Assembly (NCBI GenBank): GCA_964434165.1
Contig: CAYSUS010000060.1
Coordinates: 1-43,606 of the forward strand
Source of the DNA: an uncultured Pirellulales bacterium
Lineage (GTDB): Bacteria > Planctomycetota > Planctomycetia > Pirellulales > Thermoguttaceae
Length of the DNA stretch: 43,606 nucleotides
Reading direction: 5' to 3'
Part shown: positions 9,147 to 25,344 of the stretch, piece by piece
Numbering within the stretch: the stretch's first letter is position 1
Layout of the letters: each line of letters opens with the position of its first letter
The notes under the pieces: model-generated
Told to the model about the DNA's origin: nothing
Database searches by the model: none
The model's input: only the letters and a program-made list of their open reading frames with translations
Made by a program: the position numbers and the translations under genes

Positions 9147-12100
9147 ATGAGCGCACGCATTCGTTGCCCGGACTGCGGACGAACCTTCGAGGTAGCGCGC
9201 GATCGCCGCGGCGGCCTGTTGCGCTGTCCGCACTGCGCGCGGGCCTCGACCATCGATTCGCCCTCGTGCGCCTCCGAGGAGACGGCCGGCACGCTCCCGA
9301 TTGCCGATTCGATGGAGACGGCTCCTCCCGCTCCGGGGCTGGCAACGCCCGCATCGACGATGGCCGAATCGGGGCTTCACGTCGGGCGGTTTCGGATCGT
9401 CGGGCGTCTGGGAGCCGGGCAGTTCGGCGTGGTGTATCGGGCCCACGACCCGCTTCTCGACCGGTCGGTCGCCTTGAAGGTCCCGCATCCTGGGCGCTTC
9501 GAGAGCGAGAAGGACCGGCTTCGCGCGCTGCGCGAGGCCAAGGCCGCGGCCCAGCTCCGCCATCCACACGTGGTGCCCGTCTATGAAGCCGGAGGCGAAG
9601 GCGACCGGTTCTACATCGCGGCGGCCTTCGTCGAAGGGCGGACCCTGGAGGAGCTGGCCGAGCAACGCCCCCCCGATCCGCGACGTGCGGCCACGATCGT
9701 CAGGCAACTGGCCGACGCCCTGGACTACGCGCACCGGCGGGGAGTGGTGCACCGCGACGTGAAGCCGGGCAACGTGATGATCGACGTTCAGGGCGAGCCG
9801 CAGTTGATGGACTTCGGCCTGGCACGGCTCGATCGCGGCGAGGAGCAGCTCACGCAGGACGGGACCCTCCTGGGCACGCCCGCCTACATGTCGCCCGAAC
9901 AGGCCCGGGGCGAGCACCACCGCGTGGGGCCGGCGAGTGATCAGTACGCGCTGGGGGTGGTTCTCTTCCGGTTGCTGACGGGCAGGGTGCCGTTTACCGG
10001 CGGGCTGACCTCGGTCGTCTTCCAGGTGCTGCACCGCGAGCCCCCGCGACTGCGAGCGCTCCATCCCGGCGTGCCCCGCGATCTGGAGACGATCTGCCTG
10101 AAGGCCATGAGCAAGCAGCCCGAGGCACGGTACGCCGACTGCGGCGCGCTGGCCGAGGACCTCCGCCGCTGGCTGGCCGGCGAGCCGATTCGCGCGCGGC
10201 GCGTGGGGCCGGCCGAGCGCCTGCTGCGTTGGGCGCGGCGGAACCCCGCCGTCGCGTCGCTCAGTGCGGCGGTCGCCACCGCGCTGGTGGTCGTGGCGAT
10301 CGTGGCAGGGACGGCATACGTCGTCACGTCCCGGTCCCTGGCAGAGGCCGAGACTCGTCTGTACTTCAGCAGGGTGGCGCTGGCCTGGCAGAAGTGGGAG
10401 TCGGGCGAAGTCGATCAGGCTGAAGCCATCCTCGAGGCCTGTCCGCCCAACCGCCGTCACTGGGAATGGGGATTCCTCAAGCGACTGTGCCACCTGGAGG
10501 AGCGGGTCTGGGAGGGACATCGCGCCAAAGTGGTCGCGCTGGCCGTGGACCGCGAGGGACGGCAGGTTGCCTCGGCTTCGGCCGACGGCACGGTCAGGCT
10601 CTGGGACCTTGGGTCGCACAGGTGCGAAGGCACTTTCACGCCGCACCCCGGCGAGGCCACCGCCGTGGTCTTCCTGGAGCGCGGGGACCGTCTCGCCTCG
10701 GCCGGGGCCCGCGGGGAAGTGAGGATCTGGAAGCCCGAGCCGGGATCGGCGTCGGGCGGATTCGGGGAAGCACGGGGCGTGCGGTGCGAGGGGCACACCG
10801 GCCGGGTGAACGACCTGGCCGCCAGCCCGAAGGGCGACCTGCTGGCCTCGGCCGGCCAGGACAAGACGGTCCGGGTGTGGGACGCGGCAAGCGGGTCCTG
10901 CCTTCACGTCTTCGCCGAGCACACGGGCGGGGTGGGCGCCGTGGCGTTCAGTCCGAACGGGGTGGAGGTCGCGTCGGGCGGGGCGGACGGGGCGATCCGC
11001 GTCTTCAGCGCCCGCGACGGGTCCCAGCCGCGCACGCTCGCGAGCACGGCGAGCCCCATCCGATGCCTCGGTTTCAGCCCCGACGGCCAGAAGGTCGCCG
11101 GCGGCACGCTGGACGGCACGATCGCCGTCTGGGAGGTGGCCAGCGGCACGCGGGCGATGGTGCTTCAGCGACCGGGCGAGGACGTCGGCGAATTGGCCCT
11201 GGCTGCGGAGGGCGCGGCCCTGGCCGCAGCAAGCGCCGTGGCCTTCAGCCCCGACGGCCGGCTGATCGCCACGGCCGCCCCGGACCGCACCGTTCGCGTG
11301 TGGGAGGCGGCCAGCGGTCGCGAGATCGCCGTGCACCGGGGCCACGCGGCGACCGTGCTGGCCCTGGCGTTCACCCCGGACGGCGAGCACCTGGTCTCCT
11401 CGGGATGGGACGGCACGCTGCGCCTATGGGATGCCGACGACGACGGGGAGGCCGAAACGCTTCGCGGACATTCACACTATGTGGCGTACGTGGCGTTCAG
11501 CCGCGACGGGGCGCGACTGCTCTCGACCGCCTACGACGGGTCGGCCGTGGTGTGGGACGTGGCCTCCGAGCGTCCCGTGACCGTCTTCCGGAAGCACGAG
11601 GGCGAGGTGAACAGCGGTGCCTTCAGCCCCGACGGCCGGCTGGCGGCCACGGCCGGGTCGGACAAGACGATCCGGCTGTGGGACGCGGCGTCGGGTCGCC
11701 AGAACGGCGTGCTGCGGGGACATGGCGGACTGGTGCAGGACGTGGCGTTCAGCCCCGACGGACGCTTGATCGCCTCGGCCGGGTACGATGGGACCGTCAA
11801 GCTCTGGGACGTGGAGCAGCGGATCGAGCTGCGGACGCTCACCGGTCACGAGGATCACGTGAACAGCGTGGCCTTCGCTCCCGACGGCCGGCGCCTGGCG
11901 TCGGGCAGCCACGACGGCTCGGTCCGCGTGTGGCAGGTCGCGACGGGCGCGGAGCTTCTGACGGTCGAGCACGAAGGCTGGGTGGCCAGTGTGGCGTTCA
12001 GCCCTGACGGCGACCGCCTGCTCTCGGGCGGCCACGATCTGGCGGTCCGCGTGTGGGACGCGGAGGACGGCTCGCCTCGGTGCGTCCTGCGGCACGGGGC

Positions 12101-12329
12101 GTGGGTCTCGGCGGTCTGCGCCAGCGGCGACGGCGCGCGATACGTGTCGTGCGACTGGGCCGGCAGCGTGCACGTGTGGAGCGCCCGCGAGGGACGCGAG
12201 CTGCTGGCCGTGCCCGCCCATCCTCATCGCGTCTCCTGCGTGGCGATGAGTCCCGACGGAACGTGGATCGCCACGGGCGGGCTGGATCGTTGCGTGCGGC
12301 TCTGGAAGGCGGAACGGTCCGGCTGGTGA
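9147..12329 (+). CDS. Hanks-type Ser/Thr protein kinase with N-terminal Zn-ribbon, one TM helix and C-terminal WD40 beta-propeller repeats (about 14 blades).
   Basis: Internal ATG at 9147. Zn-ribbon MSARIRCPDCGRTFEVARDRRGGLLRCPHCARAS. Kinase motifs GAGQFGVVY, VALKV, HRDVKPGN, DFGLAR, APE. TM segment AVASLSAAVATALVVVAIVAGTAYVV. Repeated GH..V....FSPDG....S.G.DGT[VI]R[VL]WD units with WD/WE dipeptides. Confidence 0.9.
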   Translation: MSARIRCPDCGRTFEVARDRRGGLLRCPHCARASTIDSPSCASEETAGTLPIADSMETAPPAPGLATPASTMAESGLHVGRFRIVGRLGAGQFGVVYRAHDPLLDRSVALKVPHPGRFESEKDRLRALREAKAAAQLRHPHVVPVYEAGGEGDRFYIAAAFVEGRTLEELAEQRPPDPRRAATIVRQLADALDYAHRRGVVHRDVKPGNVMIDVQGEPQLMDFGLARLDRGEEQLTQDGTLLGTPAYMSPEQARGEHHRVGPASDQYALGVVLFRLLTGRVPFTGGLTSVVFQVLHREPPRLRALHPGVPRDLETICLKAMSKQPEARYADCGALAEDLRRWLAGEPIRARRVGPAERLLRWARRNPAVASLSAAVATALVVVAIVAGTAYVVTSRSLAEAETRLYFSRVALAWQKWESGEVDQAEAILEACPPNRRHWEWGFLKRLCHLEERVWEGHRAKVVALAVDREGRQVASASADGTVRLWDLGSHRCEGTFTPHPGEATAVVFLERGDRLASAGARGEVRIWKPEPGSASGGFGEARGVRCEGHTGRVNDLAASPKGDLLASAGQDKTVRVWDAASGSCLHVFAEHTGGVGAVAFSPNGVEVASGGADGAIRVFSARDGSQPRTLASTASPIRCLGFSPDGQKVAGGTLDGTIAVWEVASGTRAMVLQRPGEDVGELALAAEGAALAAASAVAFSPDGRLIATAAPDRTVRVWEAASGREIAVHRGHAATVLALAFTPDGEHLVSSGWDGTLRLWDADDDGEAETLRGHSHYVAYVAFSRDGARLLSTAYDGSAVVWDVASERPVTVFRKHEGEVNSGAFSPDGRLAATAGSDKTIRLWDAASGRQNGVLRGHGGLVQDVAFSPDGRLIASAGYDGTVKLWDVEQRIELRTLTGHEDHVNSVAFAPDGRRLASGSHDGSVRVWQVATGAELLTVEHEGWVASVAFSPDGDRLLSGGHDLAVRVWDAEDGSPRCVLRHGAWVSAVCASGDGARYVSCDWAGSVHVWSAREGRELLAVPAHPHRVSCVAMSPDGTWIATGGLDRCVRLWKAERSGW

Positions 12330-12363
12330 CCGTTCGCAATCGGGCCCCGTCTTCCACGGGGGC

Positions 12364-12392
12364 TTGACCCGTTACCCAGCCAGAGCTAGCAT
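12364..12392 (+). promoter_or_regulatory. Sigma-70-like promoter candidate upstream of the TM2 gene (TTGACC-N17-TAGCAT).
   Basis: TTGACC at 12364-12369, 17-nt spacer, TAGCAT at 12387-12392, about 60 nt upstream of the ATG at 12452. Sequence match only. Confidence 0.3.
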
Positions 12393-12451
12393 CCGCGTGT
12401 GGGGGATCGCCCCGGTGCCTGCCTCACCCTCCCCAGCCGGGAGCTCACCGA

Positions 12452-12865
12452 ATGAACTGCCCGAATTGCGGCGGCAATGTTCCGCCCGGCGTGAACCGAT
12501 GCCTCAAGTGCGGCAGTTTCGTGGAGCAGCAGGCACCGCCCCCGCCGCAACCGGCTTACGCCCCGGTCGCTCAGGTGGTGATGCAGGCGCCCATGCCGGT
12601 GCAGCCGGCGGCGGTGCCCATGACGCCCGAGAAGTCGCGGATCGCCGCGGGCCTGTTGGCGATCTTCCTGGGGGCGTTCGGCATCCACAACTTCTACCTG
12701 GGCAATGTCGGGATCGGCGTGACGCAGCTCTTGCTGACTCTGCTGGTCAGCTGGTTCACGTGCGGCCTCAGCGCGATGGTGGCGGGGATCTGGGCGCTGG
12801 TTGAGGGCATTCTTCTGTTGGTCGGCGGGATCAACCGGGATGGAGAGGGCCGGCCCCTCAAATAG
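12452..12865 (+). CDS. Zn-ribbon + TM2-domain membrane protein.
   Basis: N-terminus MNCPNCGGNVPPGVNRCLKCGSF has two CxxC pairs. A Pro/Ala-rich linker follows. C-terminal KSRIAAGLLAIFLGAFGIHNFYLGNVGIGVTQLLLTLL...GIWALVEGILLLVG matches the TM2 domain (PF05154) consensus. GGGAG RBS 8 nt upstream. Confidence 0.8.
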   Translation: MNCPNCGGNVPPGVNRCLKCGSFVEQQAPPPPQPAYAPVAQVVMQAPMPVQPAAVPMTPEKSRIAAGLLAIFLGAFGIHNFYLGNVGIGVTQLLLTLLVSWFTCGLSAMVAGIWALVEGILLLVGGINRDGEGRPLK

Positions 12866-13162
12866 CCGCCGCGCCGGCCCGCGGTGGGTGGCTTGCGCGC
12901 CTTCGCGTGGTGCGCGGCCCGGGGGCGGTGTAAGGTCTCGCACTCCCATGTGAAGACCACTTGACGACTCCGACTGGACGTTCTGGCTGCGCACCCCGGA
13001 TGAGGGGCGGGTTGAAAAACGTTCACTGCGGGGCTAGTCTATTTGGGTTCCGATGCGACCTTCCGGGAGAGGTCCTTCCGGGCGGGGAGGCCTTCGGCCT
13101 GGGAGCGGCGCATCGCCGGTGGGGGTCTCCCCGGTTGCGACCTCGGGAAGGAGGGCGTCGTC

Positions 13163-13957
13163 ATGAACCGTGCTTCGGGGATCACGCTTTTCTGGCTCGT
13201 GCTGCTCGGTGCGGCCGCCGTGGCCCTGACGGTCAGCACGTTCTACGCCTTCGTTCTCCCGGATCATCGCGGGCCGACGTTCGTCTCCGTGATCGCCTCG
13301 ACCTGCGTGGCGGAGATTGTTCTCTTCGGCTACGCGGCCTACTTCCTGACGGTGCCCCACACGGTCAAGCGTCCCAGTCCGGCCGTGCGCATGCAGATCC
13401 TCGTGCTGGTGGTGATCTGGTTTTTCATCGTGCTGGTGACCGGCGCGGTGGCGGTGCACCCCACGCTTTCGGATACGTTCTACAGCGACAAGATCCTGGT
13501 GTTCCAGTCGATCCTCACGTTCCTCATGCTGGCAGGGGCGTTTTTCCTTCACCGGCAGGACGTGGTCCTCCAGGTCCGCGAGGAGGCGCCGCAGCAGAGC
13601 CGCGTGCGCCTTCAGTCGTTCGCCGGCGGTGTGGACGCCCTGATGGATACGCTGCGGAGCCTGGCGGGCCAGAGGCCGGCCCAGGCCGCCGAGATCGAGC
13701 GGCTCACCAAGCGGCTGGACACGCTGAAGACCCAGTTGCTCTCGGTCTCGCCCGTGGCCGAGCGGGAGCCGGAGCGGAAGGTGGAGCCCCTGTCGGACGA
13801 GGAGATCGTCGAAGGCCTGAAACAATTGCACCAGAGCGTGGCGGGGTTGAGCTCCGCCGGCGACGAGCAGATCGAGAACCGGCTGGCCTCCGTGCGGCGG
13901 GAGCTGGACGCCTTGAGCGGCCTCTTGCGCCGCCGCGAGGACGTCCTCACCTTTTAG
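13163..13957 (+). CDS. Integral membrane protein (4 TM) with C-terminal coiled-coil region; no known domain.
   Basis: Internal ATG at 13163 preceded by GGAAGGAGG RBS. Four hydrophobic helices in the first 150 aa, then heptad-like segment (AEIERLTKRLDTLKTQLL..., ENRLASVRRELDALSGLL). Confidence 0.6.
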   Translation: MNRASGITLFWLVLLGAAAVALTVSTFYAFVLPDHRGPTFVSVIASTCVAEIVLFGYAAYFLTVPHTVKRPSPAVRMQILVLVVIWFFIVLVTGAVAVHPTLSDTFYSDKILVFQSILTFLMLAGAFFLHRQDVVLQVREEAPQQSRVRLQSFAGGVDALMDTLRSLAGQRPAQAAEIERLTKRLDTLKTQLLSVSPVAEREPERKVEPLSDEEIVEGLKQLHQSVAGLSSAGDEQIENRLASVRRELDALSGLLRRREDVLTF

Positions 13958-14063: not shown

Positions 14064-15032
14064 ATGCCGTGGAAAGTCATCGAGTTCCAGGATCCGACGG
14101 GCGAGGTCATGGTCGCCCGCGTGCCCCCGGAAGGAACGGCGGAGCTCGTCTCCGGATCGCAGTTGGTCGTGCAGGACGGGCAGATCGCCGCCTTCTTCCA
14201 CGACGGCAAGCCGACCGACGGATTCCGCGCCGGCCGCTTCACGCTGAGCACGCAGAACCTACCCGTCTTGAGCAAGCTCCTCCGCCTGGCCACGTTGAGC
14301 CGGTCGCCATTTCGCTCATGCGTGTACTTCGTGGCGCTGAAGACGTTCACCAACCTGGGCTGGGGGACGCCCACGCCGATTCTGTTCCGCGACTCGGAGT
14401 TCCGCATGGTCAACCTCCGCGCGCACGGCGCGTTCGCCGTGCGCGTGGCCAACCCGAAGGTCTTCCTCCACACCGTCGTCGGCACGCAGGGCGTGCAGAC
14501 GACGTTCGAGCTGCAGGACTACCTCCGCAAGATCCTCGTCGCGCGGTTCGCCAAGGTGCTTCCCGAACTGCTCTCCTCGGTCCTCGACCTTCCGCAGTTC
14601 TACGAGGAGATCGCCTCGCGCGTGAAGCGGGCCGTCTTCGAGGACTTCCAGCAGTACGGCGTCGAGCTGGTGGACCTGTTGATCGAGGCCATCACCCTGC
14701 CCCCGGACGTCCAGGACGCCATCAATCGCGCGACAGGCGTGCGCGCGGTGGGCCAGGACGAGGTCGGGCATTACGAGCGCGTCCGTCGGGCCGACGCGGT
14801 GTCGGATGCGGCGAAGACGCCGGGCAGCGACGTCGCGGGAGGCCTCGCCGCGGGACTGGGCCTGGGCGCCGGCATGCAGGTGGCCGGGCAGATGGCCGGG
14901 CCATCGGGCGGCGCCCCGAGCGTGGAGGAAGTGAAGGCCCGGCTCCGCGAGCTCAAGGGGCTGGTTGACGAGGGGCTGATCACCCAAGAGGACTTCGAGG
15001 CCAAGAAGAAGGACCTTCTGGCGAGGCTCTAG
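14064..15032 (+). CDS. SPFH/band-7 superfamily protein of the COG4260 type with C-terminal SHOCT domain.
   Basis: N-terminal 230 aa align to the COG4260 consensus (membrane protease subunit, stomatin/prohibitin family: ...VIEF.D..GEV...R.P..G...I..GSQL.V...Q.A.F...GK..D.F..GR.TL.TQNLP.L..L...). The C-terminal SVEEVKARLRELKGLVDEGLITQEDFEAKKKDLLARL matches the SHOCT domain. A Gly/Ala linker separates them. Confidence 0.75.
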   Translation: MPWKVIEFQDPTGEVMVARVPPEGTAELVSGSQLVVQDGQIAAFFHDGKPTDGFRAGRFTLSTQNLPVLSKLLRLATLSRSPFRSCVYFVALKTFTNLGWGTPTPILFRDSEFRMVNLRAHGAFAVRVANPKVFLHTVVGTQGVQTTFELQDYLRKILVARFAKVLPELLSSVLDLPQFYEEIASRVKRAVFEDFQQYGVELVDLLIEAITLPPDVQDAINRATGVRAVGQDEVGHYERVRRADAVSDAAKTPGSDVAGGLAAGLGLGAGMQVAGQMAGPSGGAPSVEEVKARLRELKGLVDEGLITQEDFEAKKKDLLARL

Positions 15033-15152
15033 ACGTTGAGCGGAGTAAGCGAGGTGACCGCGGCCGCGGGGCCGGCGCGCAAGCGGCGCCAACCCCCGGC
15101 GGTCCCGGGACCGCGCGAGTTGCTCCAAGCGCTTCAAGGAGACACCTGTCGG

Positions 15153-17462
15153 ATGCGCCGAGTCGGGCCCATGCTGAGCGGCACGCTTGGGATCGCCGTG
15201 ATCCTTGCGGCGGCAGTCTCGCTGGCCGAACAGACCCCCGCGTCTCCTCCGTCGCGCATCCCCACGCTGCCCGAGCTTCCCCCCGGCGTCGGTGCGAAGG
15301 GACCTCGGATCGCGACCGTGGCGCTCAACCGGCGCCCGGGCTACTGCTCGACCATCGCGCTCGGCTCGCCTGCCGTTCCGCCCGACGGATTCGCCTACAT
15401 GAACCTCCAGGGCGTGGTGCTGGGCGTGGTCGTCAGCAACCCCTCGGACCAGCCCGCCCACGGCCGTCTCGCCGTCAAGATGATCGATCCGGGCGGTGGT
15501 CAGCCGTTCCACGAGTCGCGTTCCGTGGCGCTGAAGGCGAAGGAATCGACGACGCAGTTCTTCTCGGTGGCGACCGGGCCCCGCCTGCCGCTGGTCTCCG
15601 CGCCGGTGCGGACCGGGGCGTGGAAGGGGACCGTGACGCTGGACAACGCGCTTGCGCCGCGCGAGCCTCCCGAGGTCCGCGCCTTCGAGCTCTTCGTGGA
15701 GGATCCCTCGCGGCCTTCGGCGGGAACGCGGGAGCCCGCGGCGCTGGGGCGCGTGCGCAAGTGGGATCCTCCCGATCTGGGTCGGCGGTTTCCCGACCTG
15801 GCGCGGTACGAACGGGCCATGCGCGTTCTCGACGGGATCATGCTTCTCCTGGCCGCGCGGGCCGGGAGCCGTGCGGGCCTGCCCAAGGACGCCGACGCGC
15901 CGCTGTGGGAGACGGCGACCGACGACTTCCTGGGCACGGCCGACGCGGCCAACCGCGCGGCGATGACCTCGGCCACGATCCGCATCGAGCCCGGGGCGGC
16001 GGTCGAGGGCCGTCGCAAGGTGGCCCTCCGCTGGAAGAACGAAGAGCGGGGCGTGCTTGCCAAGGACGGTCCCCTGCGCGTGCGCAACTGCTTCGACCGG
16101 GCGGTGCTGACCCTGTCCGTTCCGTCAGGCATCGAGCTCATCGACCAGCCTTCAGGGCTCGCCGAGACCGCCGACGATTCCGGGACGGGGCGTCGGGTCC
16201 TGGCGATCGTGGAGAGCTTCGTCGATAAGCGGCTGGTGCCCGACGAGGAGCACCTCACGACCTTGACGCTCGACGAGTCCGAGTTCGAGTCGGACGACGG
16301 CTACACGCTGATGGCCCAGGTGCAGTTGCAGTTCGGACCGTTCGGTCGGCCGCTGGGCGAGAAGCCTCTCGCCGAGCGGCCGGCGCCGCTGGAGGTCCCC
16401 GGCATGGCCGTCTATGACTACCGCCGCTGGCTCGACCGGCCGGACGACGTTTACTGGTACGTCGTGTCGGCCGCCTCGGCCGAGGCCGCGGTCGAGGCGG
16501 CCGACCCCGCCGGCGCCGAGATCGTGGTCAACCCGGGGAGGCTGCCCGAGCTGTCGGTGCCCGACGACGAGGCGTCCGGCGCGGAAGGGATGCTCGACAT
16601 CGTCTTCTGCATCGACACGACCGGCTCGATGGCCGACGACATCCAGGCCGTGCAACAGGCCTCGCAACAGATCCTCGACCGCTTCGAGGATTTCTCGGCC
16701 AGGGCCGGGATCAGTTTCCAGGTGGGCCTGGTCACGTACCAGGACCACACCGACGCGGAGACGTTCAAGGGCCAGCCCGAGGAGGCGTGGCTCCAGGCCT
16801 GGCCCCTTTCGGCCGACTCGCGCACGGTCCGCGACAACATCCTCGCGATCCGCATCAACCGCAAGGCCGTGGGCGGGGACATCCCCGAAGACCTGTTCGC
16901 CGCCCTGATGTGCGCCATGGATGCGCGTCCCGACTGGGAGGGCAAGCCCGTGCGCATGGGCTGGCGCGACGGCGCGGCCAAGATCGCCCTGGTCATGTGC
17001 GACGCGCCGCCGCACGACCCGGACTTCGAGGGCCGCACGCTGGCCGACGTGGCCCGACGGGCAGAGGAGCTCGACCCGGTTCACGTGTATCCGCTGATCC
17101 TGCCCGGCTCGGGCCCGGCCCTGCTCGATCCGACCGTGGCGGCCATGAAGCGGCTGGCCGAGGCCACGAAAGGCGAGACGACGAGCGTGTCGGGGGCCAG
17201 CGAGCTGCCCGAGGCCATTGTGCTCACGGTCCAGCGCGCGGTGGAAACCCACAGGCTCGAGGTCTGGCGGCGGGAGAACCCGCCGTATGCGCTCTTCTGC
17301 GCGGTCGGCGCGATCAGCGCCCTGGCGATCCTGGCACTGGCCGGGGCCACGTACGCGCAGCTCCGCCAGCGCCGCCGGCAGGCCGAGCCGTCCGCGGCCC
17401 GGGCGGACGACCGCGAGCTGACCGGCCAGTCCATGCGCCTCCCGCCCGAGCGCCCCGCCTGA
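15153..17462 (+). CDS. von Willebrand factor A (vWA) domain protein with N-terminal signal peptide and C-terminal TM anchor. Start uncertain: TTG 15036, ATG 15153 or ATG 15171.
   Basis: vWA/MIDAS-like block DIVFCIDTTGSMADDIQAVQQASQQIL...GLVTYQDH... Signal-like MLSGTLGIAVILAAAVSLA. C-terminal hydrophobic YALFCAVGAISALAILALAGATY followed by RQRRRQ. The TTG at 15036 lies 4 nt after the SPFH stop. Confidence 0.7.
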   Translation: MRRVGPMLSGTLGIAVILAAAVSLAEQTPASPPSRIPTLPELPPGVGAKGPRIATVALNRRPGYCSTIALGSPAVPPDGFAYMNLQGVVLGVVVSNPSDQPAHGRLAVKMIDPGGGQPFHESRSVALKAKESTTQFFSVATGPRLPLVSAPVRTGAWKGTVTLDNALAPREPPEVRAFELFVEDPSRPSAGTREPAALGRVRKWDPPDLGRRFPDLARYERAMRVLDGIMLLLAARAGSRAGLPKDADAPLWETATDDFLGTADAANRAAMTSATIRIEPGAAVEGRRKVALRWKNEERGVLAKDGPLRVRNCFDRAVLTLSVPSGIELIDQPSGLAETADDSGTGRRVLAIVESFVDKRLVPDEEHLTTLTLDESEFESDDGYTLMAQVQLQFGPFGRPLGEKPLAERPAPLEVPGMAVYDYRRWLDRPDDVYWYVVSAASAEAAVEAADPAGAEIVVNPGRLPELSVPDDEASGAEGMLDIVFCIDTTGSMADDIQAVQQASQQILDRFEDFSARAGISFQVGLVTYQDHTDAETFKGQPEEAWLQAWPLSADSRTVRDNILAIRINRKAVGGDIPEDLFAALMCAMDARPDWEGKPVRMGWRDGAAKIALVMCDAPPHDPDFEGRTLADVARRAEELDPVHVYPLILPGSGPALLDPTVAAMKRLAEATKGETTSVSGASELPEAIVLTVQRAVETHRLEVWRRENPPYALFCAVGAISALAILALAGATYAQLRQRRRQAEPSAARADDRELTGQSMRLPPERPA

Positions 17463-18207: not shown

Positions 18208-19737
18208 ATGATTCAGGTAGCGTGCCCCAGTTGCGGGGCCCAGTTCCAGACCCAGGAGATGTACGGCGGGCAGATGACCCTCTGTCCTGCCTGCCGCCGC
18301 CCTTTGACCATTCCGAGCGTCGCCCAGGGCCCGCCCGCCGCGGCCCCCGCCTCGGACCCGGCGCCGGCCTGCGTCTCGGCCCCCGGCTCGCAGGGCCACG
18401 GCGGGGCGGCCATCGCGGCCTTCGTGTGCGGCCTGCTGGCGTTGATCTTCTCCTTTGTCGCCCTGGTTCCATGCGTGGGACTGCTGGTGATCCCCTTCGG
18501 CCTCCCCTTGGTGCTGGCCGCCGTGATCTGCGGGATCATCGGCCTGGCGACCGCCAAGAGCCAGAATCGCAAGAGGTCGCTCGCCGCCACGGGGCTGGTC
18601 CTGGGCGTGGTGGCTCTCCTGTGGGCGCCGATCCTGCTGGTGTTGATCATGGGCGGCCTGTTGGGCCTCAGCTCGGCGACGACGGCGTCGCTGCCTGGGG
18701 CCGACGCGCCGCGATCCCGAACCGCGACGGCGCGTGCGAGCGAAGCGCCCAGGCCCGGTTCGGACCGCAAGCGGCCCGAACCCACGCCCCGCACCGACTT
18801 CCCCAAGCCCGGCAGCGAAGCCCCGCGGCCCGCCACCGGCACGAAGCCTCCGACCTCCAAGGGGCCGGGCAGCGCCGAAACGTCCGACGGGAGCCCGATG
18901 GCCCGCGCGCTGGGCACGGCGCCTTCGCGATCCACGGCGCCCCGCACCTCATCCCGAGAGTATGACCGGGACGCGAGGATCGCGGACCTTTTGAAGCGCG
19001 AGCCGCCAAAGAAGCCCGAACCCGAACCGGAGCCCAAGCCCGAGCCCGTCGAGCGGCCCACGGTGGTGCGCACCGAGGCCGATCTGGACCGCGCCCTGGC
19101 CGCCCTGGAGAGCCAGCGGGTCCTGGACGTCAGGCTCACGAAGCAAGCCGTGGGCGACGACCGGCTTCAGAAGCTCCGCGACTGGGTCGCGCAGGGAGGA
19201 ATCCTCTGGACCGACACGGACCTGGTACGTACAGACTACGCGAGCCGCGACGATGGCTTCGGTTTCCTGATGATCTCGGCGCCGCGCGACCAGGTCAGCG
19301 GCGAGGTCTTCGTGCGCCGCGGGTCGCCCTCGCACCCGGTCGTTGAGGACCTCGGCGAGACGGTGGGCTACGAGCTCTCCGACTGCGAGCTTCTGATCAC
19401 GGTGCCGATCGATGCGCGGGGGCAGATCCCCGACGACATCGCGCCGCTGCTCGGATGGCCGCCCGAAAGGGGCCGCCGCGCCCTGCGCGTGGTGTCGGCC
19501 CTGCGAAGTTTCGGCCGCGGTCTGGTCGCGTACATGCCGCGACGGATCACCCCGCAGGACGCGGCCGAGACGTTCGCCGAGAATCTGCGCGAGTTCAGTT
19601 TTCGCGCGGCCGCGCGGGGGGAGAGGGGCCCGTCCGGTGTGCTTCAACCATCGCCGGGACGCCGCCGCCCCAACCCCATGGAGAGCGAGCGGCCCACGCG
19701 GTCGCCGCGACGTGCTCCCAGCCGGCGGTCGCGCTGA
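18208..19737 (+). CDS. Zn-ribbon + DUF4190 membrane protein (paralogue of 17610..18134) with a 330-aa cytoplasmic C-terminal extension of unknown function.
   Basis: MIQVACPSCGAQFQTQEMYGGQMTLCPACRRPLTIP, then a DUF4190-like TM hairpin (AIAAFVCGLLALIFSFVALVPCVG...). Followed by a low-complexity Pro/Ala/Ser/Arg segment, a (PE)n/KPEP linker (19021-19050) and a 200-aa globular-looking tail (WVAQGGILWTDTDL...). AAGGTGGA RBS. Confidence 0.7.
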   Translation: MIQVACPSCGAQFQTQEMYGGQMTLCPACRRPLTIPSVAQGPPAAAPASDPAPACVSAPGSQGHGGAAIAAFVCGLLALIFSFVALVPCVGLLVIPFGLPLVLAAVICGIIGLATAKSQNRKRSLAATGLVLGVVALLWAPILLVLIMGGLLGLSSATTASLPGADAPRSRTATARASEAPRPGSDRKRPEPTPRTDFPKPGSEAPRPATGTKPPTSKGPGSAETSDGSPMARALGTAPSRSTAPRTSSREYDRDARIADLLKREPPKKPEPEPEPKPEPVERPTVVRTEADLDRALAALESQRVLDVRLTKQAVGDDRLQKLRDWVAQGGILWTDTDLVRTDYASRDDGFGFLMISAPRDQVSGEVFVRRGSPSHPVVEDLGETVGYELSDCELLITVPIDARGQIPDDIAPLLGWPPERGRRALRVVSALRSFGRGLVAYMPRRITPQDAAETFAENLREFSFRAAARGERGPSGVLQPSPGRRRPNPMESERPTRSPRRAPSRRSR

Positions 19738-19743
19738 GAGCCG

Positions 19744-20244
19744 ATGCGGCGATTGCTCCCAGGAGACACCCCAAGGATTCCGCCTGCCAGTACGATGGAG
19801 CCCAGCCGCCCGGAACCCGTCCTTACGCCCGTCGCGTCTCTCGGCGCGACGACGGATCGCTGGTACGCCCTGACCAACCTGGCGATCGCGGTCTTCCTGG
19901 TTGTCCTGCTGGCCCTGGCGGCGATCGCGCGGATCGAGGGCGATGGGCTGGTGCTGTTCGGCCGCACGATGCCTGAAACGTGCTTCTGGCGGCTGGTGTT
20001 CCACCGGCCTTGCGCGGGCTGCGGCACCACGCGGAGCGTGGTGCTCGCTCTGCATGGCCGCTGGGGCGAGGCGCGGGCCATGCACCCGGCGGGGGTCTGG
20101 GTGCTCGGGTATCTCGTGTTTCAGTTGGCCGCCCGCCTGACGCTGTTGGCAGTGCGGCCCCGCGGGCCGACGGTTGCCGGGGTCGATCTCGCGCTCTCCG
20201 TGGGGCTTCTTCTTGGGGCGTGCTACATCCCGCTCTTCCTGTGA
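19744..20244 (+). CDS. DUF2752-family membrane protein. Possible alternative start at ATG 19795.
   Basis: TM helix (LTNLAIAVFLVVLLALAAIA) followed by CFWRLVFHRPCAGCGTTRS, the C..C-G-T-R signature of DUF2752 (PF10825). Two further TM helices. ATG 19744 is 7 nt after the stop of the preceding gene. Confidence 0.65.
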   Translation: MRRLLPGDTPRIPPASTMEPSRPEPVLTPVASLGATTDRWYALTNLAIAVFLVVLLALAAIARIEGDGLVLFGRTMPETCFWRLVFHRPCAGCGTTRSVVLALHGRWGEARAMHPAGVWVLGYLVFQLAARLTLLAVRPRGPTVAGVDLALSVGLLLGACYIPLFL

Positions 20245-20355: not shown

Positions 20356-20919
20356 ATGGAGACGACGCGCGCGAGCCTGCTGCTGCGTATCCGCGACTTG
20401 CAGGACAAGGCAAGCTGGGAGGAGTTCGTCGGCATCTACGGTCCGTTTCTCCTCCGCGTGCTGCGGCGTCATTCCGTTCCGGCCGACGACTCCATGGACA
20501 TGGTCCAGGAGACGTTCCAGGCCGTGGCCGCCAACATCGGCGAGTTCCAGTACGACGCGGGGCGTTCGTTCCGGAAGTACCTGGCCACGATTGCGCTGCG
20601 CAAGGCGTGGAACCTCCTGCGCGCGAAGCAGTGCCGGCCGGCGGCCCTGGGCGGGAGCGACCAGTACCAGGCCATCCAGCAGCTCCGCGGCGAGGTCGTG
20701 GACGAGGAATGGTACCGGCGGCGCCTGGAGATGGCCATCGAGCGTGCCCGCGCGCGGTTCGGCGAGCTCGAAGGGCAGGTCTTCGAGATGGCCGATCTGG
20801 AAGGGGTGCCCGACCGCCAGATCGCCGAGCGGCTCGGAATCGACGTCGGCTACGTCTATGTCTGCAAGTCGCGGGCACGCAAGAAGGTCCGCGTGGCGCT
20901 GGAGGAGGGCGATGAGTAG
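20356..20919 (+). CDS. ECF-type RNA polymerase sigma-70 family factor.
   Basis: 187 aa. Region-2-like (FVGIYGPFLLRVLRRH...DMVQETFQAV) and region-4 HTH (LEGVPDRQIAERLGIDVGYVYVCKSRARKKVR). Typical ECF size. Confidence 0.85.
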   Translation: METTRASLLLRIRDLQDKASWEEFVGIYGPFLLRVLRRHSVPADDSMDMVQETFQAVAANIGEFQYDAGRSFRKYLATIALRKAWNLLRAKQCRPAALGGSDQYQAIQQLRGEVVDEEWYRRRLEMAIERARARFGELEGQVFEMADLEGVPDRQIAERLGIDVGYVYVCKSRARKKVRVALEEGDE

Positions 20920-23509
20920 CGAGCCGCTCGGGGCCGCGGGCTGTCCCGCCACCGACACGCTGCGCCGCGTGGCGGCGGCCGAGGCCCCGCCCGGCGAGGA
21001 GTCGCAGGTCCGAGACCACCTGAACGGCTGCGCCGCGTGCCGGGAACGTTTCGAGAGGGCGCTGGGCACAACCGCCGAGTACTTCGCCCTGCCGGACGAG
21101 AACGTCGAGCTGACGGCCGAGGAGCTTCGCGAGCTCAGCTCGCGATGTCTGCCTTTAGGGGTGAACGCCCTGCAGCGGGAAGACGGTGTCGAGCTTGCCG
21201 ACGGCCTGGGTCTGCCGCCCCCGCGAGGGCGGCCCTTCCTGGCTCGGCTCGGGCCGTACGACGTGGTTTCCGTGCGGGGCAAGGGCGGGATGGGCCTAGT
21301 GCTTAAAGGTTACGACTCGGCTCTACAGCGTTACGTGGCCTTGAAGGTGATGCTTCCGTCCCTGGCCAGGGACGAGGCGGCGCGGTGCCGATTCCTTCGC
21401 GAAGCACGGACCGCGGCCGGCCTCCGCCACGCGAACGTGGTGGCCGTGCATGCGGTCCATCACGACGCCGACCCGCCGTATCTGGTGATGGAGTACGTGG
21501 CCGGGCGCTCGCTGGCCTCGTTGCTGGCGGCCGAGCCCCTGCCGACCCCGCAGCAGGCCGCGGAAGCGGTCCGCCAGGTGCTGCTTGCGCTGGAGCACGC
21601 GCACCAGCAGGGGGTGATCCATCGCGACGTCAAGCCGGCCAACGTGCTGGTGGAGGAAGGGAGCGGGGCCGTCAAGCTGGTGGATTTCGGGCTCGCCCGG
21701 GCCGTGGCCGAGGCCGCGCGCCTCACCGCCGAAGGCATGGCGATGGGCACCCCCTGGTACATGGCCCCGGAGCAGGCCCGGGGCAGCGAGCACCCCGACG
21801 GGCGCAGCGACCTGTTCTCGGTGGGCGTGCTGCTCTTTGAGATGCTCTCCGGGACCGTCCCCTTTCCCGGACGCGACCCCCACGAGGTGATGTTCCGCCT
21901 CGCGACGGAGGACGCCCCGGACGTGCGCGCGCGAAGCCCCGAGGTGCCCGAGGCGATGGCCGCGATCGTGCGCCGCGCCCTCCGGCGGGATCCGGCGGCG
22001 CGGTACGCATCGGCGTCGGCGTTTCTCGAGGCGTTGGACGCGTTCCTCGCCGCGCCGAACCGGCCGCAGGGCGCGGCCGTGGACGGGCCTCCGGCCGCGC
22101 CCGTCGCGGGGCCGCCCCCGGCGACGTCCTGCATGCGCGTGATCCTGGAAGTCGCGAAAGGGCCGCTTGCGGGGCGCTGTTTCGAGTTCGATCGTCACGA
22201 CACCCTCGTGGTCGGCCGTTCGAAACGGGCCCAGCTTCGGATCGCCGCCGACCCCTACTTCTCGCGGCACCACTTCATGATCGAGGTCAATCCGCCCCGC
22301 TGCTTCCTTCGCGATCTGGGGAGCACGAACGGCACCTTCGTCAACGGCCAGAAGCTCGGCCAGGCCCACCTCGGCGATGGCGACGTGGTTCACGGGGGGC
22401 GGACCGAGATCCGCGTGCGCGTCGCCGGCGCGACTCCGATCGGTCTCGCCGAGGGGCTGCGGTCTGCGCCCCCCACGGCCGGCCGCGTGCGCGCCGACAT
22501 GGACGCGGTGCCGTTGGGCACCTTCGCGCCCCGGCCCGACCCGACATTGCGCTGCCGGCAATGCGGCGCCCCCGCGCGGGAAGCCGCCGTCGCCGGGCTC
22601 GCGCAGACGGGCCTGGTCGCTTACGCGTGCCGCCGGTGCCACGAGAAACACTGCGACGCCGGTCATCCGGTGGTGGATTACGAGGTCGCGCGCGTGGCGG
22701 GACACGGCCCCCTCGGGCCGATCTGCGAGGCGCGGCGCGTCTCGACGGGCACCGCCGCGACCCTCCGCGTACTGCCGCCGCACATGACGTCCAGTCCCCA
22801 GGCGGTTGACATGTTCCTTCGGCAGATGCGCCTGGGGGCCCAGTTGCGCCACCCGAACATCGTCCCCGTTTTGGAAATGGGGCAGTCGGGCGATACGTTC
22901 TGGATCGCCACGGAGCACGTCGCCGGGATCGACGCCGGGCAGTTGGCCGGGCAGCCCGGCGGATCGCTCGCGCCCGGCGACGCCGTGCCGATCGCCATGC
23001 AAGTGCTCGAGGCTCTCGACTACGCGCACGGCCTGGGGCTCGTCCATCGCGACGTCAAGCCAACCAACGTGTTCGTCTCGGGCGGCCCCGGCGCGCGGCT
23101 TGCCCGGCTCGCCGACTTCGCCTTGATGCGGGCGATCGACGACGCCGGCCTGAGCGGGATCACGCGTGAGGGGGAGTGCCGGGGCACGGTCGCCTTCATG
23201 CCGCCGGAACAGGTGCTAAGGAGCCGCCAGGCCACGCCCGCCTGCGACGTGTACGGCGCGGGGGCGACGCTCTACTGGCTCCTCACGGGCCACCCGGCCT
23301 ACGACTTCGAGGCCCGAGACGCCCGTGGCGAGCCCAAAGACCCCTTCCTGGTCATCCTGGAGGACCCCGTCGTCCCGCTGCGCCGGCGCAATCCGGCCGT
23401 ACCGGCGGCCCTGGCCCAGGTCGTGGAGAAGGCCCTCGCGCGCGAGCCCGCCGATCGCTACCGCTCCGCCCGGGCGATGCAGCAGGCCCTGGCGGGGCTG
23501 GGCTATTGA
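20912..23509 (+). CDS. Multidomain signalling protein: ZAS-type anti-sigma N-terminus, active Hanks Ser/Thr kinase, FHA domain, Cys4 Zn-ribbon, and a second degenerate kinase-like domain (likely pseudokinase).
   Basis: ATG 20912 overlaps the sigma stop by 8 nt (GATGAGTAG). N-terminus carries H-x3-C-x2-C (DHLNGCAAC), the ZAS anti-sigma zinc motif. Kinase 1 is intact: GKGGMG, VALKVM, HRDVKPAN, DFGLAR, APE. FHA block VVGRS...HHFMIE...LRDLGSTNGTFVNGQKL. CRQCG...CRRCHEKHC ribbon. Kinase 2 keeps GHGPLG and HRDVKPTN but has ATLRVL (Arg in place of beta3 Lys) and DFA in place of DFG. Confidence 0.85.
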   Translation: MSSEPLGAAGCPATDTLRRVAAAEAPPGEESQVRDHLNGCAACRERFERALGTTAEYFALPDENVELTAEELRELSSRCLPLGVNALQREDGVELADGLGLPPPRGRPFLARLGPYDVVSVRGKGGMGLVLKGYDSALQRYVALKVMLPSLARDEAARCRFLREARTAAGLRHANVVAVHAVHHDADPPYLVMEYVAGRSLASLLAAEPLPTPQQAAEAVRQVLLALEHAHQQGVIHRDVKPANVLVEEGSGAVKLVDFGLARAVAEAARLTAEGMAMGTPWYMAPEQARGSEHPDGRSDLFSVGVLLFEMLSGTVPFPGRDPHEVMFRLATEDAPDVRARSPEVPEAMAAIVRRALRRDPAARYASASAFLEALDAFLAAPNRPQGAAVDGPPAAPVAGPPPATSCMRVILEVAKGPLAGRCFEFDRHDTLVVGRSKRAQLRIAADPYFSRHHFMIEVNPPRCFLRDLGSTNGTFVNGQKLGQAHLGDGDVVHGGRTEIRVRVAGATPIGLAEGLRSAPPTAGRVRADMDAVPLGTFAPRPDPTLRCRQCGAPAREAAVAGLAQTGLVAYACRRCHEKHCDAGHPVVDYEVARVAGHGPLGPICEARRVSTGTAATLRVLPPHMTSSPQAVDMFLRQMRLGAQLRHPNIVPVLEMGQSGDTFWIATEHVAGIDAGQLAGQPGGSLAPGDAVPIAMQVLEALDYAHGLGLVHRDVKPTNVFVSGGPGARLARLADFALMRAIDDAGLSGITREGECRGTVAFMPPEQVLRSRQATPACDVYGAGATLYWLLTGHPAYDFEARDARGEPKDPFLVILEDPVVPLRRRNPAVPAALAQVVEKALAREPADRYRSARAMQQALAGLGY

Positions 23510-23558
23510 CCCTCAGCACGCCCATGCGTTCAGGGCGTCCAGCGCGAGCCCGGCTTCC

Positions 23559-23578: not shown

Positions 23579-23634
23579 AGATGGCACGGTCCGTTCGACC
23601 GTCGACGAAGCCGGTCGTCGTGGAGGCCGGCCGA

Positions 23635-25344
23635 TCAGTCGGCCGCGCGCTCACGGTACACGATCTCGCCCGAGGTGTTGATGTACCTGGGCGACGCGGT
23701 CATGTTGCGCTGGTCCACGAGCGTCACGCGAGCAAGCCCCCGATGGAAGTCCTCGACCTCGACGAACTGAGGTTCGATGACCAGCTTCCCCTTGTTGTCG
23801 ATGTAGCCCCAGAGCTCTCCCCACCTGCGGGAGTCCTTCACGGCCACGGCCGCCCGGCCGTCGGAGAACCGGCGGGACTTGACGAACTCGACGGGAAGGA
23901 CGAGCTTGCCTTGAGGGTCGATATAGCCGGCGAACGGCTTCCCTTCACGACTGCCTCGAACGGCGGCCAGACCGCCGGAGAACTCCGAGGCCGAGTCGAA
24001 CTGGGCGGCGATCTTCAGTTGGCCCGACTTGTCCACGTACCCCCATTTCCGACTCCAGCCGCCTTCCTTGATCTCCACGGGGGCCAGCCCGTCGCCGAAG
24101 CGCCCCGCCGCGTTGAACTTCGGCTCGGTGATCTGCCGGCCCGACCGGTCCACGAACGTCCACAGCCCGTTGCCGTCCTGCGGCTGCACGGGCGCGAGCC
24201 CCTCGGAGAACTCCAGCGCCGCGCGATAGCGCGGGCCGAGCACGACCTTGCCGGAGGTGTTGATGTAGCCCCAGCCTCGCTTCGTTTCGGTGGCCAGATG
24301 GACCGCGGCCAGCCCTTCGGAGAATTGCCGGGCTCCTTCGAACTGCGGTGCGATCGCCGGGACGCCCGTCGCGTCGATGTAGCCCCACAGGTTGCGCGAC
24401 GAGCGGCCGCCGGGCGTCTTGTCCTCGACCTTCATGCGCACGGCGGCGAGCCCGTCGCAGAAGGGCCCCGCCTCGAGGAACGTCGGGGAGATGACCATCC
24501 GGCCGCTGCGATTGATGTATCCGTACTTGCCGCCGGAGAGTCTCGGCTTGCGATCGTGGACCTGGACCGGATAGTAGTCGCCGCCGCCGAACATCGCGGC
24601 AGGGTTGCGCACGTAGCCCCGCACCCTCGGCGAAAGCAGATACGCCGCCACGCAGATCAACAGCACCAGCAGCACCGCGCCCGCCCCACTCGTGGCGATG
24701 ACGATCTTGCGTTTCGTCTCCGGCGACATCGGGGGCCGCGAGGAGACGGGCTGGAGAATCGAAGGATCGAGCACCGCCGTCGTGGTGTCGGACGCCGGGC
24801 CCGGCGAGCCGGAAGGTGCCGGATTCAGCTTGACCGGGATCAGCACCACCGGACTCTCGTCCGACGACCCCTGCCACGTGGCGTCGCCGCCGAGCCGCGC
24901 CGTCTGGTCGGGCGGAGGACCGGAGCCGGGCGCTACGGGAATCAGCGGGACCGGATCATCGGCCTCGGGCGCGAGCTGCGGGCCGGGTGGCGACGCCGCC
25001 GCGCGGACCGATGGAGGCTCGGGCGACGAAGATGCGCCGGTCGCCTGGGGTTCGTGCCCCTGTCCCACCTGTTCCAGGCCCCACGGCTCGGCGCAGACCT
25101 TCAGCACGGCCTGGCACCCGTTGCAGCGGACACGCTTGCCGTGAAGCTGGCGGGTCAACCGCAGCCTCTTGCCGCACTCGGGGCACGGCAGGGTGACCGG
25201 TTTGCTGGGCTGCGCGTTCTGGGCGGCGGCTTTGGGCACCTCGATGCTCTCACCGCACTCGGGGCACCGCGCGGTCTTGCCCGCCATCTCCGCCGCAACG
25301 TGGATAACCTTTCCACACTTGGAGCAGGCCAAGCTGATTGTCAT
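23635..25344 (-). CDS. Membrane protein with two N-terminal Zn-ribbons, one TM helix and a C-terminal array of WG-containing repeats (KWGYID-type).
   Basis: Start at the internal ATG (cat 25342-25344) with GGAGG RBS. Two CxxC...CPxC ribbons (CSKCGK...CPECGE and CPECGK...CNGCQ). TM segment IVIATSGAGAVLLVLLICVAAYLL. At least 8 repeats of the form [KR]WGYI[DN].[ST]G..VI.P.F..A..FS[EDG]GLA.V. Confidence 0.7.
   Translation of the reverse strand: MTISLACSKCGKVIHVAAEMAGKTARCPECGESIEVPKAAAQNAQPSKPVTLPCPECGKRLRLTRQLHGKRVRCNGCQAVLKVCAEPWGLEQVGQGHEPQATGASSSPEPPSVRAAASPPGPQLAPEADDPVPLIPVAPGSGPPPDQTARLGGDATWQGSSDESPVVLIPVKLNPAPSGSPGPASDTTTAVLDPSILQPVSSRPPMSPETKRKIVIATSGAGAVLLVLLICVAAYLLSPRVRGYVRNPAAMFGGGDYYPVQVHDRKPRLSGGKYGYINRSGRMVISPTFLEAGPFCDGLAAVRMKVEDKTPGGRSSRNLWGYIDATGVPAIAPQFEGARQFSEGLAAVHLATETKRGWGYINTSGKVVLGPRYRAALEFSEGLAPVQPQDGNGLWTFVDRSGRQITEPKFNAAGRFGDGLAPVEIKEGGWSRKWGYVDKSGQLKIAAQFDSASEFSGGLAAVRGSREGKPFAGYIDPQGKLVLPVEFVKSRRFSDGRAAVAVKDSRRWGELWGYIDNKGKLVIEPQFVEVEDFHRGLARVTLVDQRNMTASPRYINTSGEIVYRERAAD

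Follow-up and report, generated by a model that had tools for sequence, protein, structure and literature searches.

The stretch of DNA analyzed here, called the window below, is the complete 43,606-nucleotide contig CAYSUS010000060.1 (assembly GCA_964434165.1, probably a metagenome-assembled genome) from an uncultured bacterium of the Pirellulales (Planctomycetota). Between positions 9147 and 25392 it carries eleven genes, among them one for a soluble SPFH protein of the Band_7_1 family, and five of the eleven encode proteins with an N-terminal CxxC...CxxC motif, a putative zinc ribbon (Table 1). The GC content is 68-73%, and real genes were recognized by a third-position GC (GC3) above 0.8. 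A first-pass annotation, made from the sequence alone, had pointed out the motif on these five proteins, and we confirmed every occurrence. In all five it begins no more than 7 residues from the most likely start codon, and the N-termini of orthologues are alike (MSATCRCPQCG, MKCPNCAG, MIRVMCPTC). None of the approximately 14 flanking genes has an N-terminal CxxC...CxxC, and a CxxC-x6-30-CxxC pattern was not found in the remaining GC3-supported genes of the window. As had been proposed, the motifs head proteins with differing membrane or output modules, and the heads most likely lie in the cytoplasm; this topology is suggested by the absence of signal peptides, the hydrophobic segments, and published predictions for planctomycete proteins that join a Ser/Thr kinase, a transmembrane (TM) helix, and a WD40 array, in which the kinase is placed in the cytoplasm and the WD40 array in the periplasm (PMC11032199).

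Table 1. Genes and putative zinc ribbons of the cluster, with the evidence for each assignment (ECF, extracytoplasmic function; AF2, AlphaFold2 model)
Feature	Position in window	Strand	Evidence or detail
WD40 kinase, 1060 aa: class A ribbon, Ser/Thr kinase, one TM helix, WD40 propeller array	9147..12329	+	Pkinase 84-290, WD40 428 bits, TM 368-386
Ribbon of WD40 kinase, CPDC-x16-CPHC (MSARIRCPDCG…LLRCPHC)	9165..9236	+	orthologue CPQC-x16-CQHC
TM2 protein, 137 aa: class B ribbon, Pro-rich linker, TM2	12452..12865	+	TM2 (PF05154) 50.8 bits, above the cut-off of 27.9
Ribbon of TM2 protein, CPNC-x10-CLKC(G) (MNCPNCGG…RCLKCG)	12458..12511	+	spacing
264-aa protein: four TM helices, long cytoplasmic helical region	13163..13957	+	AF2
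Soluble SPFH protein: Band_7_1, C-terminal SHOCT	14064..15032	+	Band_7_1 185.5 bits, SHOCT 34.6 bits
vWA protein: N-terminal signal/anchor, C-terminal TM helix; true start uncertain	15036..17462	+	VWA_4 31.8 bits, VWA 24.8 bits
DUF4190-like a: class A ribbon, Pro-rich linker, small multi-TM protein	17610..18134	+	ribbon 17625-17696 (MIRVVCPNC…NCPQC)
DUF4190-like b: small multi-TM protein with 300-aa C-terminal extension	18208..19737	+	ribbon 18223-18294 (MIQVACPSC…LCPAC)
DUF2752 membrane protein	19744..20244	+	48.8 bits
ECF-type sigma factor	20356..20919	+	Sigma70_r2, Sigma70_r4_2
Second kinase, 865 aa: H-x3-C-x2-C, Ser/Thr kinase, FHA, internal Cys4, second kinase-like domain	20912..23509	+	two Pkinase stretches, FHA 60.5 bits
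Internal Cys4 of second kinase	22553-22639	+	21-residue spacer
WG protein: two class A ribbons, Pro/Ser-rich linker, one TM helix, WG beta-repeats	23635..25344	-	WG_beta_rep 237.5 bits, TM 230-248
Ribbons 1 and 2 of WG protein	25326-25255 and 25185-25114	-	class A

The ribbons fall into two classes. Class A follows the pattern C-x2-C-x16-C-x2-C; position 12 of its spacer is always Gly, and h-x-h-P usually comes after the last Cys. It is found on the WD40 kinase, on the DUF4190-like proteins a and b, and twice on the WG protein; the Cys residues and this one Gly are invariant, and no other position is. Class B, C-x2-C-x10-C-x2-C-G, is carried by the TM2 protein. When the ribbons were scored with class profiles built from non-window sequences only, DUF4190-like a (51 bits), WG ribbon 1 (35 bits), and DUF4190-like b (31 bits) were clear members of class A; the WD40 kinase ribbon and WG ribbon 2 reached only ∼18 to 20 bits and are assigned to class A by spacing and Gly, not by score. 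The first-pass annotation had read all of these as the same ribbon and had suggested an alignment. Five copies on four proteins do share class A, the TM2 ribbon is of class B, and the alignment as a whole resolves into two classes plus an outlier. The outlier is a sixth Cys4, which had been counted with the others; it is present inside the second kinase, as is that protein's H-x3-C-x2-C motif, and its scores are the lowest or near-lowest on both profiles, so that it fits neither class and is unrelated to the other ribbons.

A likeness to the MJ0042/zinc_ribbon type had also been claimed. Matches of that kind exist below threshold, and the N-terminal position agrees; the curated cut-offs were missed, and the spacer differs. 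Every match of the window ribbons to a Pfam or NCBIfam zinc-ribbon model fell below its curated cut-off, class A leaning toward LysW-, TFIIB-, FmdB-, and MJ0042-type models and class B toward Zn_Ribbon_1/DZR. Against the MJ0042 model of Pfam (Zn_ribbon_4, PF13717; cut-off 30.3 bits), DUF4190-like a scored 17.9 and the WG protein 18.1 bits; against that of NCBIfam (TIGR02098; cut-off 20.9 bits), DUF4190-like a scored 16.7 bits. In the MJ0042 type, as described for TIGR02098, the CxxC spacer has about 19 residues; it is 16 in all class A copies. The top Pfam ribbon match for the WG and DUF4190-like proteins, though below its cut-off of 27 bits, was the LysW-like ribbon (Zn_ribbon_LysW, PF21344; WG protein, 23.1 bits; DUF4190-like a, 18.9 bits). 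The TM2-protein ribbon gave 18.0 bits with PF13240 (Zn_Ribbon_1; cut-off, 25) and 17.3 bits with PF12773 (DZR; cut-off, 27.3); many homologues of the TM2 protein at 40 to 60% identity carry PF13240 or PF12773 in a precomputed table, and in practice this ribbon can be treated as a probable divergent member of Zn_Ribbon_1/DZR.

A profile of 12 class A ribbons was compared with solved structures. It matched LysW (3wwl_A; E = 1.8e-5) with identical x16 spacing, the ribbon of GltJ/AgmX (7zok_A; E = 1.8e-4), and 2nb9_A (E = 4.8e-4), an entry listed as "Uncharacterized protein" that we take to be the ZitP ribbon; a match to the N-terminal zinc finger of thioredoxin 2 was weak (E about 0.03). LysW/ArgW is the best full-length structural relative of class A; its pattern is CPECG-x16-CEDCG, and the Gly of the spacer falls at the same place. 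This amino-group carrier of 54 aa stands by itself, ends in an acidic tail, and acts in lysine/arginine synthesis, whereas the window ribbons head membrane proteins and no lysine-pathway genes are present here. The match is one of resemblance, not membership. As modules, ribbons of this sort are already known. The linkers behind the heads are rich in Pro, with 21 to 28% Pro in the four that lead to a membrane anchor and 12% in that of the kinase, compared with 7.4% in the cluster proteins overall.

The SPFH protein covers 201 of the 211 positions of the Band_7_1 model (PF13421), far above its cut-off of 24 bits; no TM or other hydrophobic segment and no Cys motif was found anywhere in the protein. 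Its best relative in a reference genome is only 70% identical. Loci other than the window are numbered with an L below. Loci with relatives of this gene, 22 from reference genomes and 80 from metagenomes (∼0.9 Mb together), served as a proxy background; 82 Band_7_1 loci were left for statistics after deduplication, with the GC3 filter loosened so that low-GC ribbon genes count. Among the SPFH proteins the C-terminal tail is a SHOCT, one to three x10 ribbons, or a GYF_2. Ribbon tails, spaced x10 like the head of TM2, occur on 36 of the 82, and GYF_2 replaces SHOCT in two (L112:11253-12332 and L113:11422-12483). The SPFH protein of the window had been said to have lost the ribbon of its family; relatives do often carry one, but with SHOCT, ribbon, and GYF_2 tails alternating, a loss cannot be polarized. 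As judged from these domain layouts, the tail is probably an exchangeable adaptor.

The genes around the SPFH gene differ in how widely they occur. In the TM2 protein, the four Cys of the ribbon and the next Gly are invariant in 63 homologues, and the AF2 model has predicted local distance difference test (pLDDT) scores of 93 for residues 1 to 20, 66 to 79 for the linker, and 94 to 97 for TM2. Its architecture, PF13240/PF12773 plus PF05154, is a widespread, ready-made one, the same as in Zn_Ribbon_1/DZR plus TM2 proteins named "TM2 domain-containing protein YozV." A ribbon-TM2 gene lies upstream of the SPFH gene in twelve related loci (L001, L003, L004, L006, L007, L010, L011, L023, L103, L107, L112, and L113) and, in L002, L008, and L106, within the cluster but downstream or on the opposite strand; in the window it stands two positions upstream. 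Directly upstream of the SPFH gene is the gene for the 264-aa protein, as it is in most of the planctomycete loci that include upstream sequence (L001-L004, L006, L008, L023, L027, L103-L108, L112, and L113); in L007 and L010 no homologue was detected there, and an unlabeled open reading frame (ORF) of about 265 aa occupies the place. The start of the gene is fixed by a 100% identical database entry of 264 aa. The protein belongs to a very small orphan family, with 90 representatives among 1.84 billion proteins, all of about 264 aa. It gave no Pfam match, and its AF2 model, four TM helices plus long helices at a pLDDT of 83, had no fold match in the PDB (best E = 0.18). The vWA gene, kept downstream of the SPFH gene in related clusters, encodes a protein with TM segments at residues 46-64 and 752-770.

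The two DUF4190-like proteins are tandem paralogues (35% identity over 162 residues; E = 7e-30), and their ribbons accordingly count as one evolutionary event. The first-pass annotation had named both after DUF4190 (PF13828). Protein b scored 19.7 bits against a cut-off of 35, and protein a had no match at an E of ≤0.1, so the label appears to express resemblance only; the C-terminal extension of b (18808-19737) has no Pfam match. Genes equivalent to DUF4190-like a were found in L001, L003, L004, L006, L023, and L107, and the orthologue in L103 begins MIRVMCPTCRSQFDTADQYAGRTTNCPNC. The DUF2752 gene is at the same cluster position in L003, L004, L006, L023, L103, L107, and L113. Relatives of DUF2752 have a conserved Cys motif of their own, CLVCRVTG-x3-CPSCG, of which the window copy keeps a reduced form. 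A DUF2752 gene abuts a ribbon-TM2 gene in a Firmicute-like genome that is unrelated (L110:6001-6707), a hint that TM2 and DUF2752 may pair without SPFH. With a tandem duplication behind one pair of ribbons and a ready-made architecture behind another head, the notion of a module "reused" within the locus is misleading; each ribbon type appears to have come with its own protein family, and the interpretation given in the first-pass annotation is partly supported.

Gene order in the planctomycete loci was read by tblastn together with published gene calls. A common order recurs at 41 to 70% identity in L001-L011, L023, L103-L108, and L112-L113: class B ribbon-TM2 protein, 264-aa protein, Band_7_1-SHOCT protein, vWA protein (or a shorter periplasmic protein), class A ribbon-small TM protein, and DUF2752 protein. 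L103/L104 have the whole layout of the window, from the WD40 kinase through the pair formed by the ECF sigma factor and the H-x3-C-x2-C kinase, and the same ribbons, class A on the kinase and small TM protein and class B on TM2; the kinase, in the same position, starts MSATCRCPQCG…x16…CQHC, and the small TM protein MIRVMCPTC…x16…CPNC. L006 runs from an ECF sigma factor through a ribbon-headed kinase with a beta-propeller, the ribbon-TM2 protein, and the 264-aa protein to SPFH, after which come a small ribbon protein, vWA, a double-ribbon TM protein, DUF2752, and a GYF-like membrane protein. A class A gene lies downstream of vWA in every SHOCT-tailed cluster that has enough sequence and a vWA gene or its substitute (L001, L003, L004, L006, L023, L103, L107, and the window); it is missing in L113, the sole GYF_2-tailed cluster with sequence past vWA, L112 ending at the vWA gene. 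GYF_2 proteins occur in or beside five related clusters. The ECF sigma factor and ZAS-like kinase are absent from L001, L106, L107, and L113 and thus lie outside the conserved core. Only in the window was a WG-repeat protein found next to the cluster; none was present at the other loci, where L103 was checked and other "WG" labels proved to be weak, ribbon-only matches. The WG protein had been listed among the ribbon-bearing proteins of this neighborhood; the related loci do not bear it out as a conserved neighbor. With WG confined to the window and the kinase variable, conserved ribbons are those of TM2, of the small TM protein, and of the kinase where present.

N-terminal Cys4 motifs were concentrated around the SPFH gene. 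Across the 82 loci, they were present in 33 of 311 genes within three positions of it and in 9 of 283 further away (Fisher p = 3.6e-4); at six or more positions, the count was 3 of 177. For at least 5 of 11 genes to carry one, the binomial P is 6e-7 to 1e-4 at a background of 1.7 to 5%. The N-terminal ribbons of the planctomycete loci all lie inside the cluster; the other Cys4 motifs that passed the filter there were heme c sites, UvrA fingers, one spurious antisense ORF, and one C-terminal motif. A search of a 5.8-billion-protein collection with a 40-residue class A profile returned 48 candidates, of which 3 matched at an E of ≤10, and was unusable for counting the module or its architectures. 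At distant Band_7_1 loci the ribbon-headed neighbor differs lineage by lineage. In low-GC, Firmicute-like loci (L014-L017) it is a double-ribbon protein of ∼500 aa; in L063 there are a ribbon-TM-Toastrack (DUF4097) protein and a 112-aa double-ribbon protein; and the Bacteroidales locus L012 has a ribbon protein of 462 aa. Ribbon-headed genes are enriched next to Band_7_1 genes in many lineages, and within the planctomycete cluster the ribbons are conserved on the same components. In the literature searched, we found no paper that names two or more of DUF2752, DUF4190, the TM2 domain, Band_7_1, and GYF_2 together. We conclude that this is a planctomycete variant, not described before, of a Band_7_1 SPFH membrane module with ribbon-headed partners.

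Two further arrangements were seen at these distant loci. In L063 the ribbon-TM-Toastrack gene (1369-2616) lies directly upstream of a triple-ribbon SPFH gene, a pair that ties Band_7_1 loci to the Toastrack/Lia-PSP stress network (PMC11237479). A second, high-GC lineage (L041, L042, L060, L073, L081, and L097; around 9400-13200) keeps a triad of a ∼180-aa soluble coiled-coil protein, a Band_7_1 SPFH with a ribbon or SHOCT tail, and a ∼690-aa Ser/Thr kinase, so that SPFH-kinase adjacency recurs outside Planctomycetota.

The closest known system is the pspA-ydjGHI (samGHI) envelope-stress operon of Bacillus subtilis, to our knowledge the only Band_7_1 system that has been studied, with few known partners. 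Its SPFH protein, YdjI/SamI, we take to be a member of Band_7_1 (PF13421), a placement that the papers cited below do not state. As in the window, a soluble Band 7-family SPFH protein has no membrane anchor, and YdjI cannot reach the membrane alone. YdjI ends in a zinc finger; YdjG opens with two ribbons, the cloning primer encoding MIISYKCPNC, and continues with an NTF2-like domain and a TM segment; and recruitment of YdjI and PspA to the membrane requires both YdjG and YdjH (PMC8581546; 10.64898/2026.02.06.704340; PMC11237479). In layout, the ribbon-headed membrane proteins near the SPFH gene of the window (TM2 and DUF4190-like) recall YdjG with its two ribbons and NTF2-like domain, and each system has another membrane protein whose cytoplasmic part is helical or of low complexity (the 264-aa protein and YdjH); the B. 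subtilis system couples membrane state to signaling. They differ in that no TPM_phosphatase or PspA_IM30 match was obtained among the window proteins scanned against Pfam, that the unrelated 264-aa protein stands where the TPM-domain YdjH would be, that the SPFH tail is SHOCT rather than a zinc finger, and that the window adds vWA, DUF2752, Ser/Thr kinases, and an ECF sigma factor.

The heads themselves resemble those of GltJ/AgmX from Myxococcus and ZitP from Caulobacter, in which an N-terminal cytoplasmic Cys4 ribbon of ∼40 residues, connected by a flexible linker to the membrane anchor, functions in protein docking or switching. The GltJ ribbon binds its own linker and the GTPase-activating protein (GAP) MglB, its structure is reported to resemble the PopZ-binding ribbon of ZitP, and receptor-like membrane proteins of myxobacteria and planctomycetes commonly have ribbon-GYF heads (PMC11135422). 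The GltJ spacer has 19 residues (C8 to C28) and that of class A 16. The window lacks an MglA/MglB, AglZ, or PopZ context and a GYF domain in its own proteins, whereas GYF_2 in or near related clusters, fused to SPFH in L112/L113, is a likeness to the GltJ-type ribbon-GYF heads.

We favor, by a modest margin of confidence, a reading in which the zinc-ribbon heads gather the membrane proteins and receptor kinases of the cluster into one assembly with SPFH by docking under the membrane. The Cys4 motifs would be zinc ribbons, that is, small folded cytoplasmic heads, and a flexible, Pro-rich linker would tether each to a membrane anchor (TM2, the DUF4190-like proteins, or the one helix of the WG receptor). 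For the WD40 kinase, this linker would connect the head with the cytoplasmic kinase domain, after which comes the single TM helix. The center of the cluster would be the soluble SPFH protein (Band_7_1 with a SHOCT tail) and the four-TM, helical membrane protein, accompanied by a periplasmic vWA protein and DUF2752; many genomes add Ser/Thr kinases and an ECF sigma factor. The heads would serve as zinc-stabilized protein-protein docking modules just under the membrane, working with the tail adaptor of SPFH, and periplasmic inputs (WD40, WG, and vWA) may thereby be coupled to phosphorylation, FHA reading, and sigma-factor control. Docking to SPFH or to its partner is plausible; zinc binding, the cytoplasmic location, the docking role, and the docked partner are all features that we infer.

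Several observations weigh against this assembly. The ribbon-SPFH contact is hypothetical, and a single common binding site is hard to square with two ribbon classes. Two of the six ribbons are on the WG protein, which is not a conserved cluster member, and kinase and sigma genes are missing from several clusters (L106, L107, and L113). The background rate behind the enrichment comes from related loci, not from the source genome itself, and the gene calls used in that test were crude, home-made, and GC3 based. In B. subtilis, two-hybrid contacts were reported for YdjI-YdjH and YdjG-YdjH but not for YdjG-YdjI (PMC8581546). Ribbon-TM2 proteins, moreover, occur without a Band_7_1 neighbor in three non-planctomycete, Firmicute-like contexts (L109-L111), all of which we inspected; one is beside yidC/jag, one is beside DUF2752, and one is alone. 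The ribbon head of the TM2 protein therefore does not need SPFH. Much of this would be expected if the heads had no shared partner and were simply an old part of each family (ribbon-TM2, ribbon-DUF4190-like, ribbon-kinase, and ribbon-WG), acting locally in self-association, topology, or auto-inhibition, with their density reflecting a cluster that collects small membrane proteins with cytoplasmic N-termini. That account is also favored by the wide occurrence of ribbon-TM2, by the partly intramolecular action of the GltJ ribbon on its own linker (PMC11135422), and by the DUF4190-like paralogy and the two WG ribbons, which reduce the number of independent events. It does not readily explain the enrichment beside Band_7_1 in unrelated lineages with differing partners (Toastrack, YdjG-like double-ribbon, and small double-ribbon proteins), nor why the SPFH family itself often carries an x10 ribbon tail, and we regard it as a serious competitor that is nevertheless distinctly less probable than docking.

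Two other explanations carry less weight. The first-pass annotation had offered a metal- or redox-sensing handle, and the ribbons could in principle lose their zinc or become disulfide bonded when exposed to thiol or metal stress, like ZAS anti-sigma factors, and so switch signaling to the ECF sigma factor. The CPxC motifs are there, H-x3-C-x2-C opens a kinase whose translation is coupled to that of the ECF sigma gene, and class A weakly matches the thioredoxin 2 finger. The kinase motif, HLNGCAAC near the N-terminus, reached 18.1 bits with zf-HC2 (PF13490), below the cut-off of 22.2, and it and the sigma factor lie outside the core; class A is invariant only in its Cys and one Gly, and in the studied relatives, GltJ and ZitP, the zinc sites are structural and serve protein binding (PMC11135422). 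Apart from CPxC itself and, in a noncore gene, a ZAS-like motif that falls below threshold, we found nothing specific for sensing, which we consider improbable. Chance or an annotation artifact, with Cys motifs arising at random in a 70% GC genome or from miscalled N-termini, might be suspected, since high GC yields many spurious ORFs and the ribbon hidden Markov model matches are all below threshold. The motifs, however, sit in GC3-supported genes, keep their position and spacing in orthologues at 41 to 70% identity, include the four Cys of the TM2 ribbon that do not vary in 63 homologues, and have a binomial P of at most 1e-4. Their conservation in orthologues effectively refutes this explanation, to which we give almost no credence.

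What bacterial SPFH/flotillin-like scaffolds organize is still poorly defined. Under the docking reading, the cluster offers a compact, conserved set of candidate clients with a shared tag, the ribbon head on a Pro-rich tether, and an SPFH tail that swaps, and the question of who binds whom becomes a small set of pairwise tests. It also links SPFH scaffolds to Ser/Thr-kinase and ECF-sigma signaling in Planctomycetota. A bolder extension is that Band_7_1 scaffolds use the swappable tail to capture clients with a ribbon head on a Pro-rich tether, an "adaptor code" that would wire TM2, DUF4190-like, DUF2752, the vWA sensor, receptor Ser/Thr kinases, and the ECF sigma factor into an SPFH envelope-signaling microdomain. 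We put this forward as a speculation that is clearly more likely wrong than right; if true, it would give bacterial SPFH proteins an identifiable client list. Should the heads be intrinsic to their families, with no common partner, the finding would be a correct but ordinary observation on domain architecture.

The stop codon of the ECF sigma gene overlaps the start of the second-kinase gene by 8 nt (GATGAGTAG), and an ECF sigma factor is in the same cluster in L103, L002, and L006. In the second kinase, inspection by eye shows that the kinase-like domain nearer the C-terminus reads DFA in place of DFG and carries Arg at the position of the beta-3 Lys; for these reasons it may be a pseudokinase. 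The internal Cys4 is placed directly upstream of this domain, as the class A ribbon is in the WD40 kinase. A reading of the locus as antiphage defense was rejected: PADLOC matched only the two kinases, on their kinase domains (PD-T4-6, mad6, and PglW models), and the remaining eight proteins had no PADLOC match.

The flanking genes are unrelated and encode an ABC-2 permease, a porin, a GDSL lipase, an aldo-keto reductase, an esterase, a PQQ-propeller protein, glycoside hydrolases, and a DUF6288 protein. A small EF-hand protein is encoded a few kilobases upstream of the cluster, perhaps by coincidence, in the window (5035-5388) and in the L107/L108 relative (L107:3849-4352). Adjoining the WG gene, outside the conserved cluster, is the gene for a 1168-aa protein (25798-29304, minus strand) that combines a methyltransferase-like segment with PQQ/BamB-type beta-propeller repeats.

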